Both the position numbers and the translations under genes were made by a program. Positions 44,745-53,096 of a stretch of DNA of 64,000 bases are shown here, piece after piece. The notes under the pieces were generated by a model that saw only the letters and a list, made by a program, of their open reading frames with translations, had not been told where the DNA came from and did no database searches. The stretch is from NCBI GenBank assembly GCA_965222155.1, contig CBDCTH010000012.1, forward strand, positions 1,920,001 through 1,984,000, written 5' to 3'. The DNA is from Gammaproteobacteria bacterium (GTDB lineage Bacteria > Pseudomonadota > Gammaproteobacteria > Eutrophobiales > Eutrophobiaceae). The number at the start of each line of letters is the position of its first letter. The first letter of the stretch is position 1.

Positions 44745-46115
44745 TTACCCGGCAAGTCTGATAATGTCATTATAAATGGCCAGGGTCATAAGACCGAACA
44801 GCAGTACAATGCCGATACGCTGACCAAGCAGTTGTACGGATTCGGATACCGGGCTGCCCTTGAAAAATTCTATCAAATAATAGAACAGGTGACCTCCGTC
44901 CAGTAACGGAACAGGCAACAGATTCAACACCCCCAGACTGACACTGACGATGGCCAGAAACCCCAGAAAGGCGACGATACCCAGTTGTGCGGTCTGCCCT
45001 GCGTATTGGGCAATGCTGACCGGACCACTCAGGTTTTTCAGCGAAGCCTCACCGGTTATCATCCTGGCCAGGATCTGCAGGGTGATAACGGTCATATCAA
45101 GCGTTTTGCGAATCCCTTTTACCAGGGCGGTATGCAGCGGATAGGCTTCAACCGCAAACAGGGATTGATCAGCGTTGAAGTCCGGATCCAGCCCTACCCC
45201 AATAAAACCGATTGTCCCTCCCTCCTCAGAGACCTTTTCCTCAGGTGTTAATACTATCTCCATGTCATCACCGCCCCTGGATAGCCTGACGGACAGGGGA
45301 ATACCCGGTGCAGCCCTGATAAGTTCCACCCAGTGTTGCCAATCCCTGACAGCCGCACCGTCAACGGCTACTATTCTGTCACCGGCTACCAGGCCGGCCT
45401 CCCGGGCCGCGCCCTGGTTTGCAACCTCACCGATAATTGCAGGTATTGCCGGGCGTACGGGTTCGACACCCAGCAGACGCAACAAATTCCCTTCGGCCAT
45501 GGCATCAATCGGTATTGACGCGAGGTCGACTTCCAGCCAACGTTCATATCCCCGGGTATCCTTTACGCTGACAGTCGCTACGCTGCCATCGATCACTCCG
45601 GCAACCAGTTTCTCCAGGGCCGTATTCCAGGTCGGTGTTCCCTGCCCGTTAATTTCCGTAATTTTATCACCTGCCCGAAAACCGGCCTGCATAGCGACGG
45701 AACTCTCCTCTACTGAACCGACTATGGGTTTCAATCCGGTTACGCCAAGTCCGTAGATAACCCAATAAGCCAGAACAGCAAAAATAAAATTGAATAACGG
45801 CCCCGCTACGACAATGGTAAAACGCTCACCGAGTGACTTGTTATTAAACGCCCTGGTACGTTCCGGTTCGGACACGGAGCCCTCCCGTTCGTCCAGCATT
45901 TTCACGTACCCCCCCAGAGGAATTGCGCCAATGACAAATTCAGTATTGTCTATGCCGAACACTTTACGCCACAGGGGACGCCCGAAACCAACTGAAAATC
46001 GCAGGATTTTTACATCGCATTTCCTGGCGACCCAGTAATGCCCGAATTCATGAAAGGTGATCAAAATCCCCAGGGCGAAAATAAACGCGAAGACCATCTG
46101 CATCATAGCTATCAT
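44745..46115 (-). CDS. rseP: RIP metalloprotease RseP
   Basis: HEFGH, IPLGGYVKM, AGPLFN, two PDZ domains, NLLPVPLLDGGH. Confidence 0.98.
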   Translation of the reverse strand: MIAMMQMVFAFIFALGILITFHEFGHYWVARKCDVKILRFSVGFGRPLWRKVFGIDNTEFVIGAIPLGGYVKMLDEREGSVSEPERTRAFNNKSLGERFTIVVAGPLFNFIFAVLAYWVIYGLGVTGLKPIVGSVEESSVAMQAGFRAGDKITEINGQGTPTWNTALEKLVAGVIDGSVATVSVKDTRGYERWLEVDLASIPIDAMAEGNLLRLLGVEPVRPAIPAIIGEVANQGAAREAGLVAGDRIVAVDGAAVRDWQHWVELIRAAPGIPLSVRLSRGGDDMEIVLTPEEKVSEEGGTIGFIGVGLDPDFNADQSLFAVEAYPLHTALVKGIRKTLDMTVITLQILARMITGEASLKNLSGPVSIAQYAGQTAQLGIVAFLGFLAIVSVSLGVLNLLPVPLLDGGHLFYYLIEFFKGSPVSESVQLLGQRIGIVLLFGLMTLAIYNDIIRLAG

Positions 46116-46121
46116 CAGTTT

Positions 46122-46436
46122 AGCCCGGATTTCTCACTAGGCCGCTAGATGCCGCCGGAGATTTGTTTGCTGTCAATGAGTTTAAATACATTCTTCACTA
46201 TGTCGCCATTACAGGCTACGCTTGATGCGCCCTCGCTTGTCTTTTTGCCGCCAGCGGGCACGTGTTCATTGCGCCCATCCCTGGGCGCAACCCTGCGGGC
46301 GGCTGTCGCCGTGCAAATTGTCTATCCTGACAATTTGTCCCTCAACCAGAGCTACAGCTATGGTTTCGGTCGCAGGCACCCGCTGGCGGCAAAAATCCGG
46401 CGCGATCATCGCATCACCTGGTGAGAAATCCGGGCT
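46122..46436 (+). mobile_element. MITE-like element with 20-bp terminal inverted repeats, copy 1
   Basis: agcccggatttctcactagg / cctggtgagaaatccgggct (19/20); interior homologous to 50495-50813 in the opposite orientation. Confidence 0.75.
46268..46339 (+). mobile_element. 72-bp multi-hairpin mini-element, copy 1
   Basis: Present as a clean insert after GTTC; the empty site is visible in the other host copy. Confidence 0.75.
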
Positions 46437-47611
46437 GCCAGCCTCCGGCATTGATCAGTTGCGTAAGACCGGGCTTTCCTGTCCGCGTCCAGGATCTGTT
46501 CCAGCGTATCGGCAGCCTGGTTCTCAATGCCGTCCAGAGTTTGTTTCACGACCTCCGCTATTTCCGTATACCTGATATGGTTTCCCAGGAATTCCGCAAC
46601 TGCAACTTCATTGGCGGCATTCAATATGGCCGTAGCAGTTCCGCCCTCAGCCAGCGCCTGCCTTGCCAACCCCAGGCATGGGAACCTGTCCGGGTCAGGT
46701 TTTTCAAAGTTCAATTGCGATACGTCGAACAGGCTCAGCTTTTCCACCCCGGAATCGATTCGCCGCGGCCAGGCCAGGCCATGGGCTATGGGTGTGCGCA
46801 TATCAGGATTTCCCAACTGCGCCAGAACCGAACCGTCGGAATACTCGACCAGAGAATGAATAACACTCTGCGGATGGATTACGACTTCAATATTCTCAGC
46901 GGTAGTATCGAACAGCCAGCAGGCTTCAATCACCTCCAGCCCCTTGTTCATCATGGTGGCGGAATCCACCGATATCTTTCTTCCCATATCCCAGTTGGGA
47001 TGTGCACAGGCCTCAGCGGGAGTCACATTTCTCAACTCCTGTAACGCTTTTGTCCGGAACGGTCCACCCGATGCGGTAAGCAGGACCCGCGTTACGCCGG
47101 CCTGCTCCAACCCGGCGTTGAAGTTCTGTGGCATACATTGGAATATGGCATTGTGCTCACTGTCGATGGGCAGTAATTGAGCGCCGTTTTCTCTTATTGC
47201 ATCCATAAACAGTTTTCCCGACATCACCAACGCCTCCTTATTGGCAAGCAATACCCGTTTGCCGTTGCGCGCAGCCGCCAGTGTGGGCAGCAAACCCGCG
47301 GCGCCGACGATTGCCGCCATGACGTAATCCGTCTCGCTGCACCCGGCGATCTCCTGTAATCCCTCCTGCCCTGATAACACCTTGATGTCCGGCGCTTCCT
47401 GTTGCAGTGCATCTTTCAAGTGGCCGGCTGCTTCAATGTCTGCCATGGCTGCATAGCGTGGCCTCCAATCGAGGCATTGCTCAAGCATCCCCCCGACGTT
47501 GGTGTTACCCGTGAGCCCAATCAATTCAAACATATCCCTGTGTCTGGCCATCACATCCAGTGTACTTAACCCGATACTTCCGGTTGACCCCAGGATAGTT
47601 ACGCCGATCAA
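46406..47611 (-). CDS. dxr: 1-deoxy-D-xylulose 5-phosphate reductoisomerase
   Basis: [40 protein letters not shown]. Confidence 0.98.
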
Positions 47612-48441: not shown

Positions 48442-49153
48442 TCTGCTTGAGTTGTTCTGAAGTGCGACCGAAGCGACGCTGTCTGCCGATATAGGATTCC
48501 AATGCCTTGTCAAATTCGACCTCGTCAAAATCCGGCCAGTACACATCGGTAAAATACATTTCCGTATACGCCAGTTGCCACAACAGGAAATTACTGATAC
48601 GCACTTCTCCTCCCGTTCGAATGAACAGATCAGGATAGTCCGGCAGGTCCAGGTGGCGCCTCAAGCTTTCTTCCGAGATATATTCTCCGCCCCTGTTTTG
48701 CGCGGACAACGCGGCGAAGAGTTTTTTGCAGGCGGATACGATTTCCCGACGCCCACCATAATTTATCGCTATGACCAGATTTAACCCGTTATTTGCCGAA
48801 GTTTTACATCTGGCATTTTGAATAGATACCTGTAGCTCGTCGGGAAAAACAGAAATATCGCCGATAAAAGACAGCCTGACATTATTTTTATGCAGTTCGT
48901 CGATCTCGTCATCCAATGCAGTTATGAATAGCTCTATCAATAGCGCCACCTCGGCATCCGGCCGCTGCCAGTTTTCAACGCTGAAAACATATACGGTGAG
49001 CGTCTTTATCTCACGGCAAATACTGTGTTCAACCGTTTCGCGCAACGCATCTATACCGGCTTTGTGACCGGCCGCTCGTGGCAATCCCCTGCTCTTTGCC
49101 CACCTGCCGTTGCCATCCATGACGATGGCGACGTGCCCCGGTATATTTTCCAT
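48425..49153 (-). CDS. uppS: Undecaprenyl diphosphate synthase
   Basis: [41 protein letters not shown]. Confidence 0.98.
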
Positions 49154-49154
49154 T

Positions 49155-49183
49155 AGCCCGGATATTACACCAGTGGATGCGAT
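49155..49183. repeat. Solo terminal repeat of the TA-flanked MITE-like family
   Basis: agcccggatattacaccagtggatgcgat versus acccggatattgcgccagtggatgcgat at 50497-50524. Confidence 0.75.
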
Positions 49184-49184
49184 C

Positions 49185-49742
49185 CTAAATCTCCATCAAC
49201 TCCATCTCTTTTTCCTTGAGGGTATTATCAATGTCCTTGATATGCGCATCAGTGATCTTCTGTATATTGTCTTCCTGCTGGCGGTCTTCATCTTCAGTAA
49301 TGAGCCTTTCCTTCAACATTTGTTTCAGGTGATGGTTCGCATCGCGGCGGATATTACGGATAGCAACCCTGGCTTTCTCCGCTTCCGACCTGACTACCCG
49401 GGTCAATTCCTTTCTGCGCTCCTCTGTCAGTATCGGCAGGGGAACCCGCATCACGCTACCGGCAGTAACCGGGTTCAGTCCCAGATCCGAATTCATTATC
49501 GCCTTCTCAATATCGGCAACCATGTTCCTATCCCACGGCGCCACACCCAACGTGCGAGCATCCAGAACGTTGATATTGGCCGCCTGGTTTAATGGGACCT
49601 GACTTCCATAGTAATTAACGCTGATATGTTCCAACAGACTTGGATGAGCCCGTCCGGTGCGAATTTTTGCAAGCTCACTGGCTAATGCCTTGAGCGTTTT
49701 ATTCATGCGATTATCAGCATCTTTGAGAATTTCTTCAATCAT
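49185..49742 (-). CDS. frr: Ribosome recycling factor
   Basis: [29 protein letters not shown]. Confidence 0.98.
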
Positions 49743-50479: not shown

Positions 50480-50494
50480 AACGCACCTATTCTT

Positions 50495-50813
50495 TAACCC
50501 GGATATTGCGCCAGTGGATGCGATGACAAATCGTCAGGATAGACGATTTGCACGGCCGCAGGCCGCCGTAAGGTTGCGCCCAAGGATGGGTGCAATGAAC
50601 GCGCTGGATTTTTTGCGCTGACGGGCGCCTGCGACCGAAGGCATAGCCGGGTCTCTGGTTGAGGGAGCACGTGCCCGTCAGCGCAGAAAAGACAAGTGAG
50701 GGCGCATCCAGCGCAGTTTGTAACATCATATAAATTAGAATTAGCCATATAACCGTATGATTATATATGAATTTTAGTCTTCTTCCAAGCGGACTGGCGC
50801 AATATCCGGGTTA
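50495..50813 (-). mobile_element. MITE-like element with perfect 21-bp terminal inverted repeats, TA at both ends, copy 2
   Basis: taacccggatattgcgccagt (50495-50515) / actggcgcaatatccgggtta (50793-50813). Confidence 0.78.
50525..50596 (-). mobile_element. 72-bp multi-hairpin mini-element, copy 2
   Basis: Same length and near-identical to 46268-46339; inserted after GTTC at a different host position. Confidence 0.75.
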
Positions 50814-51710: not shown

Positions 51711-52955
51711 TCAGTCCTGTTTGGCTTCAGTTGCATCTTCAGCGGGCGAGTCGGCCTGCTTGGCTGCAACTGCGTCTTCAGCAGGCGAGTCGGCCTGCTT
51801 GGCTGCAACTGCGTCTTCAGCGGGCGAGTCGGCCTGTTTGGCTACAACTGCGTCTTCAGCGGGCGAGTCGGCCTGTTTGGCTTCAGCCACGTCTTCAGCG
51901 GGCGAGTCGGCCTGTTTGGCTGCAACCTTCTTTTTTGTTGCTGTTTTAGCCGGGGTTTTCTTCACGGCTTTTTTTGTCGTGCTTTTCGTGGCTGAGGATT
52001 TCGCTGCAGCAGTCTTTTTCCTGGTGGTCTCCGCAGCAACCGTCTCTTCCACTGACGGCTCATCTACCCGTTGTTCTGGTTGCGTTTCAGTATTTGATGC
52101 GTCCCGGTTATCACTGCCGGCCTCGACCTTCGGCACCGTGGTTTTACTGATCTTTTTCTTGACAGTCCTCTTTTTGACCTGAACTTTTTCCCGCTTGGCC
52201 TCGACAATCGGCGCGCCCTCGGCGTCAAGCTCCACAAATTCATCCTTATCCCCACTCTCACCCAGGTGCGCAACGGAATCTTTCCCCGTCAAAATGGCAT
52301 CGGCTACAGCCTTTGTGTACAACCTGATAGACCGTATGGCATCATCATTACCTGGTATAACGTAGTCAACGCCAAGGGGACTGTTGTTGCTGTCGACTAT
52401 GCCGACTACAGGTATCTTGAGTTTGACCGCTTCACTGATGGCTATATCCTCGTAGCCTACGTCAATTACAAATAATGCATCAGGCCAGCCGTTCATGTCT
52501 TTGATGCCCGACAGATTCCGGTCCAGTTTTTCCAGCTCCCTTTCATAATGCAGTATTTCTTTTTTACTCATGCGTGCCATGCTGCCGTCAGTTTTCATCT
52601 CCTCCAGTTCCCGCAGGCGGTTAATAGACTGTTTGACCGTTTTATAGTTGGTCAGCAAGCCACCTAACCAGCGCAGGTTTATATAAGGCATACCGCAACG
52701 CAATGCTTCTTCCTTGATAATCTGTTGCGCGGCGCGTTTTGTTCCCACGAACAGGAGTGTCCCTTTATTGGCCGACAACTTACTGACAAAATTCAGGGCT
52801 TCCTGGAACAGAACCTTAGTCTGTTCCAGGTCAATAATATGTATTTTATTACGGTGGCCGAACAGGTAAGCAGCCATTTTGGGATTCCAATAGCGGGTCT
52901 GGTGACCAAAATGGACACCAGCCTCCAGCATTTCACGCATGCTGATTTCAGACAT
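51711..52955 (-). CDS. rpsB: 30S ribosomal protein S2 with long Lys/Ala/Glu-rich C-terminal extension
   Basis: [35 protein letters not shown]; AGGAG RBS 7 nt before ATG 52955. Confidence 0.97.
51716..51926. repeat. Coding tandem repeat, 39-bp unit x ~5.4
   Basis: cctg(t/c)ttggc....tcttcagcgggcgagtcgg units encoding [13 protein letters not shown]. Confidence 0.95.
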
Positions 52956-52967
52956 AATCATGCTCCT

Positions 52968-53066
52968 GACAGGGTTAAGCTTCCGCACATCCCGCATTTC
53001 ACCCGGCGACTTTAACAAGAGGTGGCCAGGACCCCGATATGCGCTCTACAATGTGCGTGTGTATTT
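52968..53066 (-). ncRNA. rpsB leader (t44 / S2 autoregulatory RNA)
   Basis: Minus strand ACACACGCA...CGGGGTCC...GGGATGTGCGGAAGCTTAACCC follows the gammaproteobacterial rpsB leader pattern. Confidence 0.75.
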
Positions 53067-53096
53067 AATGATATTTGGATATCTTGCCATAACAGC

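Follow-up and report, generated by a model that had tools for sequence, protein, structure and literature searches.

How a 72-nt sequence came to interrupt one and the same repeat at two different places is the question raised by the 64-kb stretch of DNA analyzed here (the window; C12:1920001-1984000, where C12 is one of the 12 contigs of a 4.55-Mb assembly). Unit copy 1 occupies positions 46268..46339 of the window on the forward strand, and unit copy 2 occupies positions 50525..50596 on the reverse strand; both belong to the subfamily that we call type A, and 61 of their 72 nucleotides are identical (84.7% over 72 nt). In an alignment of the surrounding 360 nt, copy 1 lies inside gggcacgtgTTC^cctcaacc and copy 2 inside ccagcgcgTTC^atcgcatc, and each host copy is empty at the site that is filled in the other (gtgCTCcctcaacc and gcgcgATCatcgcatc). 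An earlier note on this DNA had described one 72-nt unit at two different sites of a single repeat, and the alignment, with its filled and empty sites, bears this out.

The unit, its fold and the repeat that carries it

Folded as single-stranded DNA, the unit forms four hairpins in succession, which in copy 1 lie on the forward strand at 46269-46290, 46291-46299, 46300-46311 and 46314-46337 and are followed by a terminal TC at 46338-46339. The fold has a z-score of -7.3 in copy 1 and -5.5 in copy 2, with 0 of 200 shuffled sequences folding as well, so that the string of hairpins previously read from the letters is confirmed; the opposite strand folds equally well. Covariance-model matches cover both copies, at C12:1966262-1966342 (95.7 bits) and C12:1970522-1970602 (82.4 bits). 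A TTC triplet, which is either a conserved flank or a part of the element, abuts the 5' end of copy 1 (46265..46267, forward strand), and TTC likewise precedes copy 2 on its own, reverse strand (50597-50599). The window copies do have the compensatory T/A versus C/G pair that had been pointed out in the last hairpin, and a third variant, with G/C at a neighboring pair, occurs elsewhere in the genome.

The hairpins of the unit are under structural selection. We aligned 88 distinct units, namely the two window copies and 86 from 98 loci in other records, leaving out duplicates, copies cut by contig ends and three loci with no recognizable first hairpin (L022, L069 and L097). The family architecture begins with CAT and ends with GTC; in between, two mini-hairpins separate a covarying hairpin from a 3' hairpin, and both of these outer hairpins have a TCC loop. 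In hairpin 1, all nine pairs show changes on both sides across the 88 units; paired cells amount to 95.1% of the alignment, compared with 84.1% in shuffles, none of 500 of which is as high, and with 31-40% after sliding of the partners. The invariance of hairpin 4 in this set is due to ascertainment, because the search pattern fixed that hairpin except for two covarying pairs, and in other subfamilies hairpin 4 has quite different stems with the same TCC loop. TCC is found in the loops of hairpins 1 and 4 in all subfamilies (in the window, 46278-46283 and 46323-46329), and on the opposite strand, therefore, two hairpins have loops with GGA, spaced by about 35 nt; these we take to be candidate lookalikes of CsrA/RsmA binding hairpins.

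Both window copies ride in a larger repeat. Host copy 1 (46116..46438, forward strand) is MITE-like, carries unit copy 1 at internal site 1 and is bounded by 20-nt terminal inverted repeats at 46122-46141 and 46417-46436 that are 95% complementary. Host copy 2 (50494..50810, reverse strand) carries unit copy 2 at internal site 2, has perfect 21-nt terminal inverted repeats (50495-50515 and 50793-50813; 100% complementary) and is flanked on both sides by TTA, a 3-nt junction repeat. Contigs of related strains, which are Logan contigs from public runs with at least 85% likeness and which show that host-repeat-free forms exist rather than how frequent they are, join 46115 to 46439 with five other letters between them (runs X4 and X10), and a joint from 50493 to 50811 skips 317 nt with a 3-nt ambiguity (contigs of X4 and X10 and an RNA-library contig of X18). 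The terminal inverted repeats, the TTA flanks and the strains free of the host repeat together indicate that the host is a MITE-like element of 317-323 bp that was inserted whole. Because the entire host repeat is missing from related strains at each of the two window loci, the two units arrived there as passengers, and the view that the unit had been caught in the act within the window does not hold. Composites with the unit at the same internal host sites also occur in the genomes of several other species; entry of the unit into the host repeat thus predates both MITE insertions in the window.

Contig joints that skip only the unit (46264>46338 and 50522>50595, 72-73 nt) were considered as excision events and rejected, as they probably derive from paralogous empty host copies in those metagenomes. 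Elsewhere in the window, a solo host-repeat terminal sequence lies at 49153-49191 (85% identical to the end at 50494-50532), across which related-strain contigs have small deletions; five tandem copies with a 39-nt period, or 13 codons if coding, occupy 51716-51965; and an Rfam t44 RNA match lies at 52974-53079 on the reverse strand (52.2 bits; gathering score, 44).

Copies, ends and insertion sites

A covariance-model search of the genome and its relatives, one of the checks that the earlier note had named, yielded many further copies with the same ends. In the 4.55-Mb genome, the two window units as BLAST queries retrieve 76 merged loci, and the covariance model gives at least 116 matches at E<=0.01 among the 150 of 2906 candidates that were scored. 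Within this genome the unit, with the same ends, stands in 12 or more unrelated contexts, and it is found in other orders as well; the first hairpin is intact in 31 copies, which represent 19 distinct sequences. Type B, a second subfamily with 37-48 copies by regular expression (for example, C12:1652623-1652703 on the reverse and C12:2354840-2354920 on the forward strand), keeps the four-hairpin plan with different stems and often lies in the same host repeat directly beside type A in the opposite orientation. The element family as sampled across the class also forms tandem head-to-tail arrays with a period of 74-75 nt, in which the units abut at GTC|AT.

Units are themselves interrupted by smaller modules (examples at C4:593648-593757, C12:2291557-2291637 and C12:553762-553849). 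M2, a 29-nt hairpin, interrupts the loop of hairpin 1 in roughly half of the copies, following CCCAG of the opposite strand, and is also present in an IS5-like gene, whose reading frame it shifts by its length. M3, which is related to M2 and 27 nt long, often splits M2 in the opposite orientation, and M4, of about 80 nt, lies between hairpins 3 and 4, dividing the unit at GTGCA^AATCG, and ends in a hairpin built like hairpin 4 of the unit. A search for distant pairs of 5' and 3' ends revealed no long autonomous version in the genome; the only two such pairs, 2.4 kb apart, were dismissed because they match by chance within an ORF resembling methionine synthase, which two contigs have in common. 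These contigs, C7 and C10, share near-duplicate sequence that includes this ORF (e.g. C7:23700-26420 versus C10:47300-50040), which fits the figure of 7% contamination or strain heterogeneity for the assembly.

Other copies could have shown random flanks or variable ends; instead, their ends are exact and their flank is non-random. Among 111 type A starts found with a loose regular expression, 67 are preceded by TTC, which makes up 1.7% of triplets genome-wide, and 10 by CTC; the remaining 34 show 26 different triplets and are probably chance matches. On the element strand, 60 of 63 3' ends read ATTTG-TC. Type B starts are preceded by TTG (33 of 48), TAG (7) or CTG (3), and type B ends in TG (19 of 37) or TC (17). 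In the alignment of 88 units, which spans many taxa, T occupies position -3 in 77 units, position -2 holds T in 59 and G in 25, and C occupies position -1 in 86. Position -4 is G only at the host-repeat sites and A, T or C elsewhere. Because position -4 is not conserved, the flanking motif is T(T/G)C and not GTTC, the target originally proposed. A link to tRNA genes, likewise proposed, fell away: no copy touches a tRNA, and the nearest ones, at 3 of the 76 loci, are 310-645 nt off. The unit has no terminal inverted repeats, its ends ATTGCG... and ...GATTTGTC not being inverted repeats of each other. Between the flank triplet and the internal columns of the 88 units, no guide-like covariation was detected, with mutual information of at most 0.4 bit and the maximum reached with neighboring flank columns.

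Filled and empty alleles agree with these ends. In an IS5-like transposase gene, ten copies are empty (gaaTTC|ATaacg or ATaccg) and four are filled exactly there, one of the four carrying nested M2 and M3; a further IS5-like copy, the eleventh, holds a 26-nt remnant of the unit. The insertion adds 72 nt, that is, 24 in-frame codons, to this gene. In a second IS family (IS-X), one copy is filled at site 2, the empty form of which reads cgtacTTTC|ATAAGG. An orthologous intergenic locus, C12:2987951, is filled in this genome (G000), and its orthologues in 12 congeners give split matches with a gap of at most 17 nt; eight were aligned, and all eight are empty (ATATTC|AT). At the same locus, the closest relative (G024:C1, L125) has a different 63-nt hairpin insert exactly at the TTC|AT point, beginning ATTTGTCCTGACGA and ending GCATTTGTC, which looks like a rearranged or related element, and three other congeners have an unrelated palindrome at the orthologous point.

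The three clean sites share TCAT at their junctions, which means that insertion took place after TTC without duplication or with a duplication of up to 4 nt. Of the earlier claim that at most TC is duplicated, the TC end stands, but the shared TCAT makes a duplication of 2-4 nt possible. The sites in the host repeat differ in that the triplet of the filled copies is mostly absent from the empty ones. At site 1, the 55 empty copies read CTC (40), CTT (13) or TTC (2), and the 26 filled copies read TTC; at site 2, where the count is fuzzy and noisy, 65 of 77 empty copies have ATC and 7 filled copies have TTC; at site 3, 61 of 68 empty copies have CCC and 14 filled copies have TTC. The type B site in the host repeat has CTC when empty and TTG when filled, and the element there ends in GTC. 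Either a single hit in a rare variant was later amplified, or the triplet travels with the element. In sum, the unit is inserted with precise ends and next to a flank that is not random.

Part of its spread among IS paralogs is gene conversion. At IS-X site 1 the empty form is GTGTTC|ATCGC, and three filled copies have CTC, CTC and ATC. In the congener G023, a filled IS-X copy differs from a 98.8%-identical empty copy at 13 positions, 12 of which fall within the 41 nt on the left side of the unit, agreeing with the sequence of a diverged filled paralog, with no differences to the right of the unit; this cluster denotes a conversion tract, and independent insertion at the same IS-X site in two species was therefore dropped. 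In the present genome, the 14 differences in IS-X are scattered, and one abuts the unit. Among the IS5-like genes, the unit is identical at 72 of 72 positions in three copies whose flanks are 92-93% identical, with differences at -6 and +5, and at 70 of 72 in the fourth copy, with flanks of about 85% identity. Conversion explains part of the better conservation of the unit relative to its flanks, but not the clean insertions at the IS5-like site, at IS-X site 2 and at the orthologous locus.

Distribution and the search for an enzyme

This genome is the richest of its genus: a 29-nt pattern occurs 56 times here and in 19 of 22 congeners (1-23 copies), and it is found in one of two other genera of the family and in none of 16 other families. 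With the covariance model at E<=1e-5, matches were obtained in at least 49 of 150 other gammaproteobacterial families; this class survey used one genome per family, including the unpublished G068 and G170, and its copy counts come from at most 30 scored candidates per genome. Named records hold at least 98 loci, in Methylococcales, Lysobacterales, Rhodanobacter, Luteimonas, Novilysobacter, Pseudoxanthomonas, Woeseia, Pseudomonadales and others; a few metagenome-assembled genomes labeled Verrucomicrobia, Anaerolinea or Rhodospirillales carry the unit too, which could be binning errors. Lysobacterales have one to four copies, placed between housekeeping genes at sufC-sufD, on either side of pgi and after an aldehyde dehydrogenase gene, often within another short palindrome and in either orientation. 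At E<=1e-3, 72,556 plasmid records and 50,697 phage records gave no match.

Rfam 15 yielded no match on the unit at the gathering score in the 64-kb window, nor at E<=1 in 601 nt around copy 1 and at 15 loci from other taxa. In the collection of papers that was searched, sequence strings returned only unrelated primer matches, and keywords led to no description of it among the entries listed. Relative to co-directional flanking ORFs, type A has the same orientation in 13 cases and the opposite in 12, and type B in 5 and 8, respectively. By GC skew and a dif-like site, replichore orientation on contig C12 is 24+/16- and 11+/9-, with most copies riding in the MITE. The lack of any preference for gene orientation or replichore, along with the lack of an Rfam match, argues against a cis-acting RNA role, and the orientation data say little on single- versus double-stranded DNA because most copies ride in MITEs. 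The dif-like site is single, lies at C12:1450704 and coincides with the cumulative GC-skew maximum (~1.445 Mb), the minimum being near 2.5 Mb. A dif/Xer interpretation of the unit was rejected: its joined ends resemble a dif-like site loosely, without the central region.

A co-occurring HUH, Y1 or Y2 enzyme had been suggested as a check. For Y1, two intact RAYT-like genes and a gene fragment were found here. One intact gene encodes 285 aa with a C-terminal DNA-binding-like tail and lies 1.3 kb past the end of the window (C12:1985271-1986125), and the other encodes 222 aa (C12:2623897-2624565); each is flanked by its own REP/REPIN family (~32 and 49 copies, many in inverted pairs), which is unrelated to the unit. 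Within about 2.5 kb of 22 Y1 loci (two here and 20 in 11 other unit-carrying genomes; 120,788 bases), there was no model match for the unit. In the 150 class genomes, Y1 is found in 29 of 49 with the unit versus 64 of 101 without it (OR 0.84, p=0.72), and 20 unit-positive genomes, one of them with four copies, lack a Y1 match. Y1 thus does not track the presence of the unit. It does track high copy number, being found in 16 of 17 genomes with at least four copies versus 77 of 133 others (OR 11.6, p=0.003), with a threshold chosen post hoc and genome size uncontrolled. This association may be a general-mobilome effect, since IS110 leans likewise (20 of 49 unit-positive genomes versus 31 of 101, p=0.27; 9 of the 17 with at least four copies, OR 2.4, p=0.10). 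Within the genus, every genome with at least five pattern matches has a Y1 match, and those lacking a Y1 match have at most four. The 285-aa RAYT with its C-terminal tail was rejected as the driver: full-length relatives occur in 17 class genomes, of which 9 are unit-positive, and in 4 of the 17 multi-copy genomes. The ends of the IS200 elements of congeners are unrelated to the unit.

The connection with IS91-family transposases that the GTTC flank had called to mind did not survive. No IS91-family gene was detected in this genome with two models (PF04986 and NF033538), and NF033538 carriers are mostly free of the unit: it exceeds the cut-off in 19 of the 150 class genomes, of which five carry the unit, and in two of the 17 multi-copy genomes.

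How the unit may move

Our preferred explanation, to which we give somewhat more credence than doubt, is that the unit is a member of a widespread family of 72-75-nt non-coding insertion elements and probably moves in trans by single-strand nicking and joining. Such an element would start with AT right after the flanking T(T/G)C and end in ...TTTG-TC, and it would have no gene and no long parent copy. Insertion would be precise, preferably at TTC^AT, with junctions sharing up to TCAT, and would reach intergenic DNA, palindromic repeats, IS transposase genes and the element's own superfamily, giving Russian-doll nests and head-to-tail arrays. Primary insertion would be performed in trans by an enzyme that reads the folded single strand (TCC loops and TC^ ends) and that may nick and join it much as HUH "peel-and-paste" elements do; an enzyme with other duties than transposition could serve as well. 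As a best guess by analogy, IS200/IS605-like, hairpin-guided nicking and joining of a single strand would suit these features best among known mechanisms. The earlier idea of a tiny, non-autonomous, structured mobile element thus stands in that the unit is non-coding, constrained in structure, exact in its ends, nested in repeats and present in filled and empty alleles, and its analogies with IS91, GTTC targeting and tRNA genes have not stood; a Y1/HUH enzyme may still be involved. Several observations weigh against the single-strand route: empty copies at four host-repeat sites lack the T(T)C or TTG of the filled copies; both RAYT-like genes here have REPs of a different kind beside them, with no unit near the 22 Y1 loci; the presence of Y1 does not track that of the unit, and the IS200 ends of congeners are unrelated to it; in G023 the unit entered an IS paralog by conversion together with donor flank; and the replichore counts show no strand bias, a test weakened by the many copies that ride in the MITE.

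The unit might instead form a double-stranded circle that undergoes site-specific recombination at a TC or TCAT core through an unlinked serine, tyrosine or DEDD (IS110-type) recombinase. The same TCAT at both junctions of the three clean sites, the exact abutment of tandem units at GTC|AT and the lack of replication-strand bias, most copies being in the MITE, are all consistent with a circle; at sites where the core differs, moreover, the left junction is of the element type and the right junction of the target type, as heteroduplex resolution would give. Yet no recombinase gene is linked to the unit, the association with IS110 is weak, four covarying hairpins with conserved loops are unneeded for a duplex core, and the nucleotide at -3 is left unexplained, so that we rate the circle as unlikely while granting it a real chance. 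We think it improbable that no dedicated machinery is involved and that the unit spreads solely by gene conversion or template switching between repeats with short flank similarity. The G023 tract and the near-identity of the unit in four IS5-like copies with diverged flanks speak for such a course, as does the resemblance of the targets at IS-X site 1 and host site 2 (TCATCGCATCC) to the 5' end of the unit itself. It would not account, however, for identical ends in unrelated contexts across orders or for clean insertion both at a chromosomal locus that is unique and at IS sites whose flanks resemble those of no donor, and the differences at -6 and +5 in the IS5-like genes mean that a conversion tract would have to coincide with the element.

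More doubtful still is the possibility that the unit is primarily a functional structured RNA or protein-binding motif (for instance, CsrA/RsmA-type GGA loops on the opposite strand), its repetition being secondary. Its 3' half is letter-identical across orders, its stems covary strongly, its loops are conserved in all subfamilies, and the opposite strand has GGA in the loop of both large hairpins; but it obeys no orientation rule, standing both ways even inside Lysobacterales housekeeping operons, and its position inside coding sequences and inside other units, its filled/empty polymorphism and the lack of an Rfam match are hard to reconcile with a primary function of this kind. Rolling-circle mobilization of the IS91/ISCR type next to GTTC would match the GTTC flank of the window copies and the lack of a target duplication, and the arrays could reflect failed termination. 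As neither model detected such a gene in the genome richest in units within the genus, only five of 19 carriers have the unit, and position -4 is not conserved, we consider this route very improbable. That no insertion took place at all and a single composite repeat was rearranged internally, as the presence of both window copies in one host repeat family could suggest, we regard as practically out of the question: the same unit with the same ends occurs in the 12 or more unrelated contexts mentioned above, and empty host copies are abundant for each site, which refutes it.

Comparison with known systems sets the preferred single-strand reading in context. The 72-nt unit resembles the PATEs of IS200/IS605 elements in having hairpins at both ends, no terminal inverted repeats and insertion after a short T-rich motif with no clear duplication, but differs in several respects: no TnpA with matching ends was detected, the length is no more than 72-75 nt, the hairpins adjoin the cut sites directly, two extra mini-hairpins are present and the flank motif has 3 nt. 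It shares with REP/REPIN-RAYT systems its short length, abundance, structure, mostly intergenic position and non-autonomy, and two RAYT-like genes are present here. Unlike REPs, it has no GTAG tag or inverted doublet, its copies being single or in head-to-tail arrays, and it is nearly letter-identical across orders, whereas the inheritance of REPIN-RAYT systems is reported to be mostly vertical. The host repeat, with its 20-21-nt terminal inverted repeats, TTA junction repeat and presence or absence among strains, conforms to a DDE MITE, and the 72-nt unit, which lacks terminal inverted repeats and a regular target duplication, does not. Yeast mitochondrial GC clusters, double-hairpin elements and BIME/ERIC variants are likewise very small and structured, with insertions in genes and in one another, and to our knowledge no enzyme is known for them; their hosts and sequences differ from those of the unit, and we claim no homology. 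Integron attC sites have R''/L''-L'/R' boxes and stand in cassette arrays beside intI; their core consensus is GTTRRRY, which the unit junction GTTCATT does not fit. TTCAT and TTTAT are among the target-adjacent motifs (TAMs) of the IS605 family according to the part of one report that deals with ISGst elements (PMC10055086). CGTC-tagged REPs, including RPE-4 and RPE-6 of Rickettsia, are palindromic and are said to have no dedicated transposase (Di Nocera et al. 2013, PMC3733652). Some of them lie inside genes and other palindromes, and their tag is CGTC or TGTC, the unit ending in TGTC; compared by description, they differ in being single hairpins of 8-9 bp with 4-5-nt loops and a CCA tail, mostly in Alphaproteobacteria (PMC3733652), while the unit is a fixed array of four hairpins.

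A broader claim, which we put forward tentatively and believe may well be wrong, is that the family constitutes a new class of mobile DNA: 72-75-nt, four-hairpin, gene-less elements found in about a third of gammaproteobacterial families, recognized by their fold, moved by an unlinked and possibly housekeeping single-strand DNA enzyme, and able to colonize repeats, transposase genes and themselves. If true, the unit would be among the most widespread small repeats of Gammaproteobacteria, and one so far unnamed. Its defined ends, flank and fold, combined with the lack of a transposase, would make the mobility of gene-less palindromic repeats such as CGTC-type REPs and RPEs directly testable. 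The unit also matters for annotation, since it lengthens genes by 24 in-frame codons, forms composite repeats at which assemblies break, and passes from one IS paralog to another by conversion.
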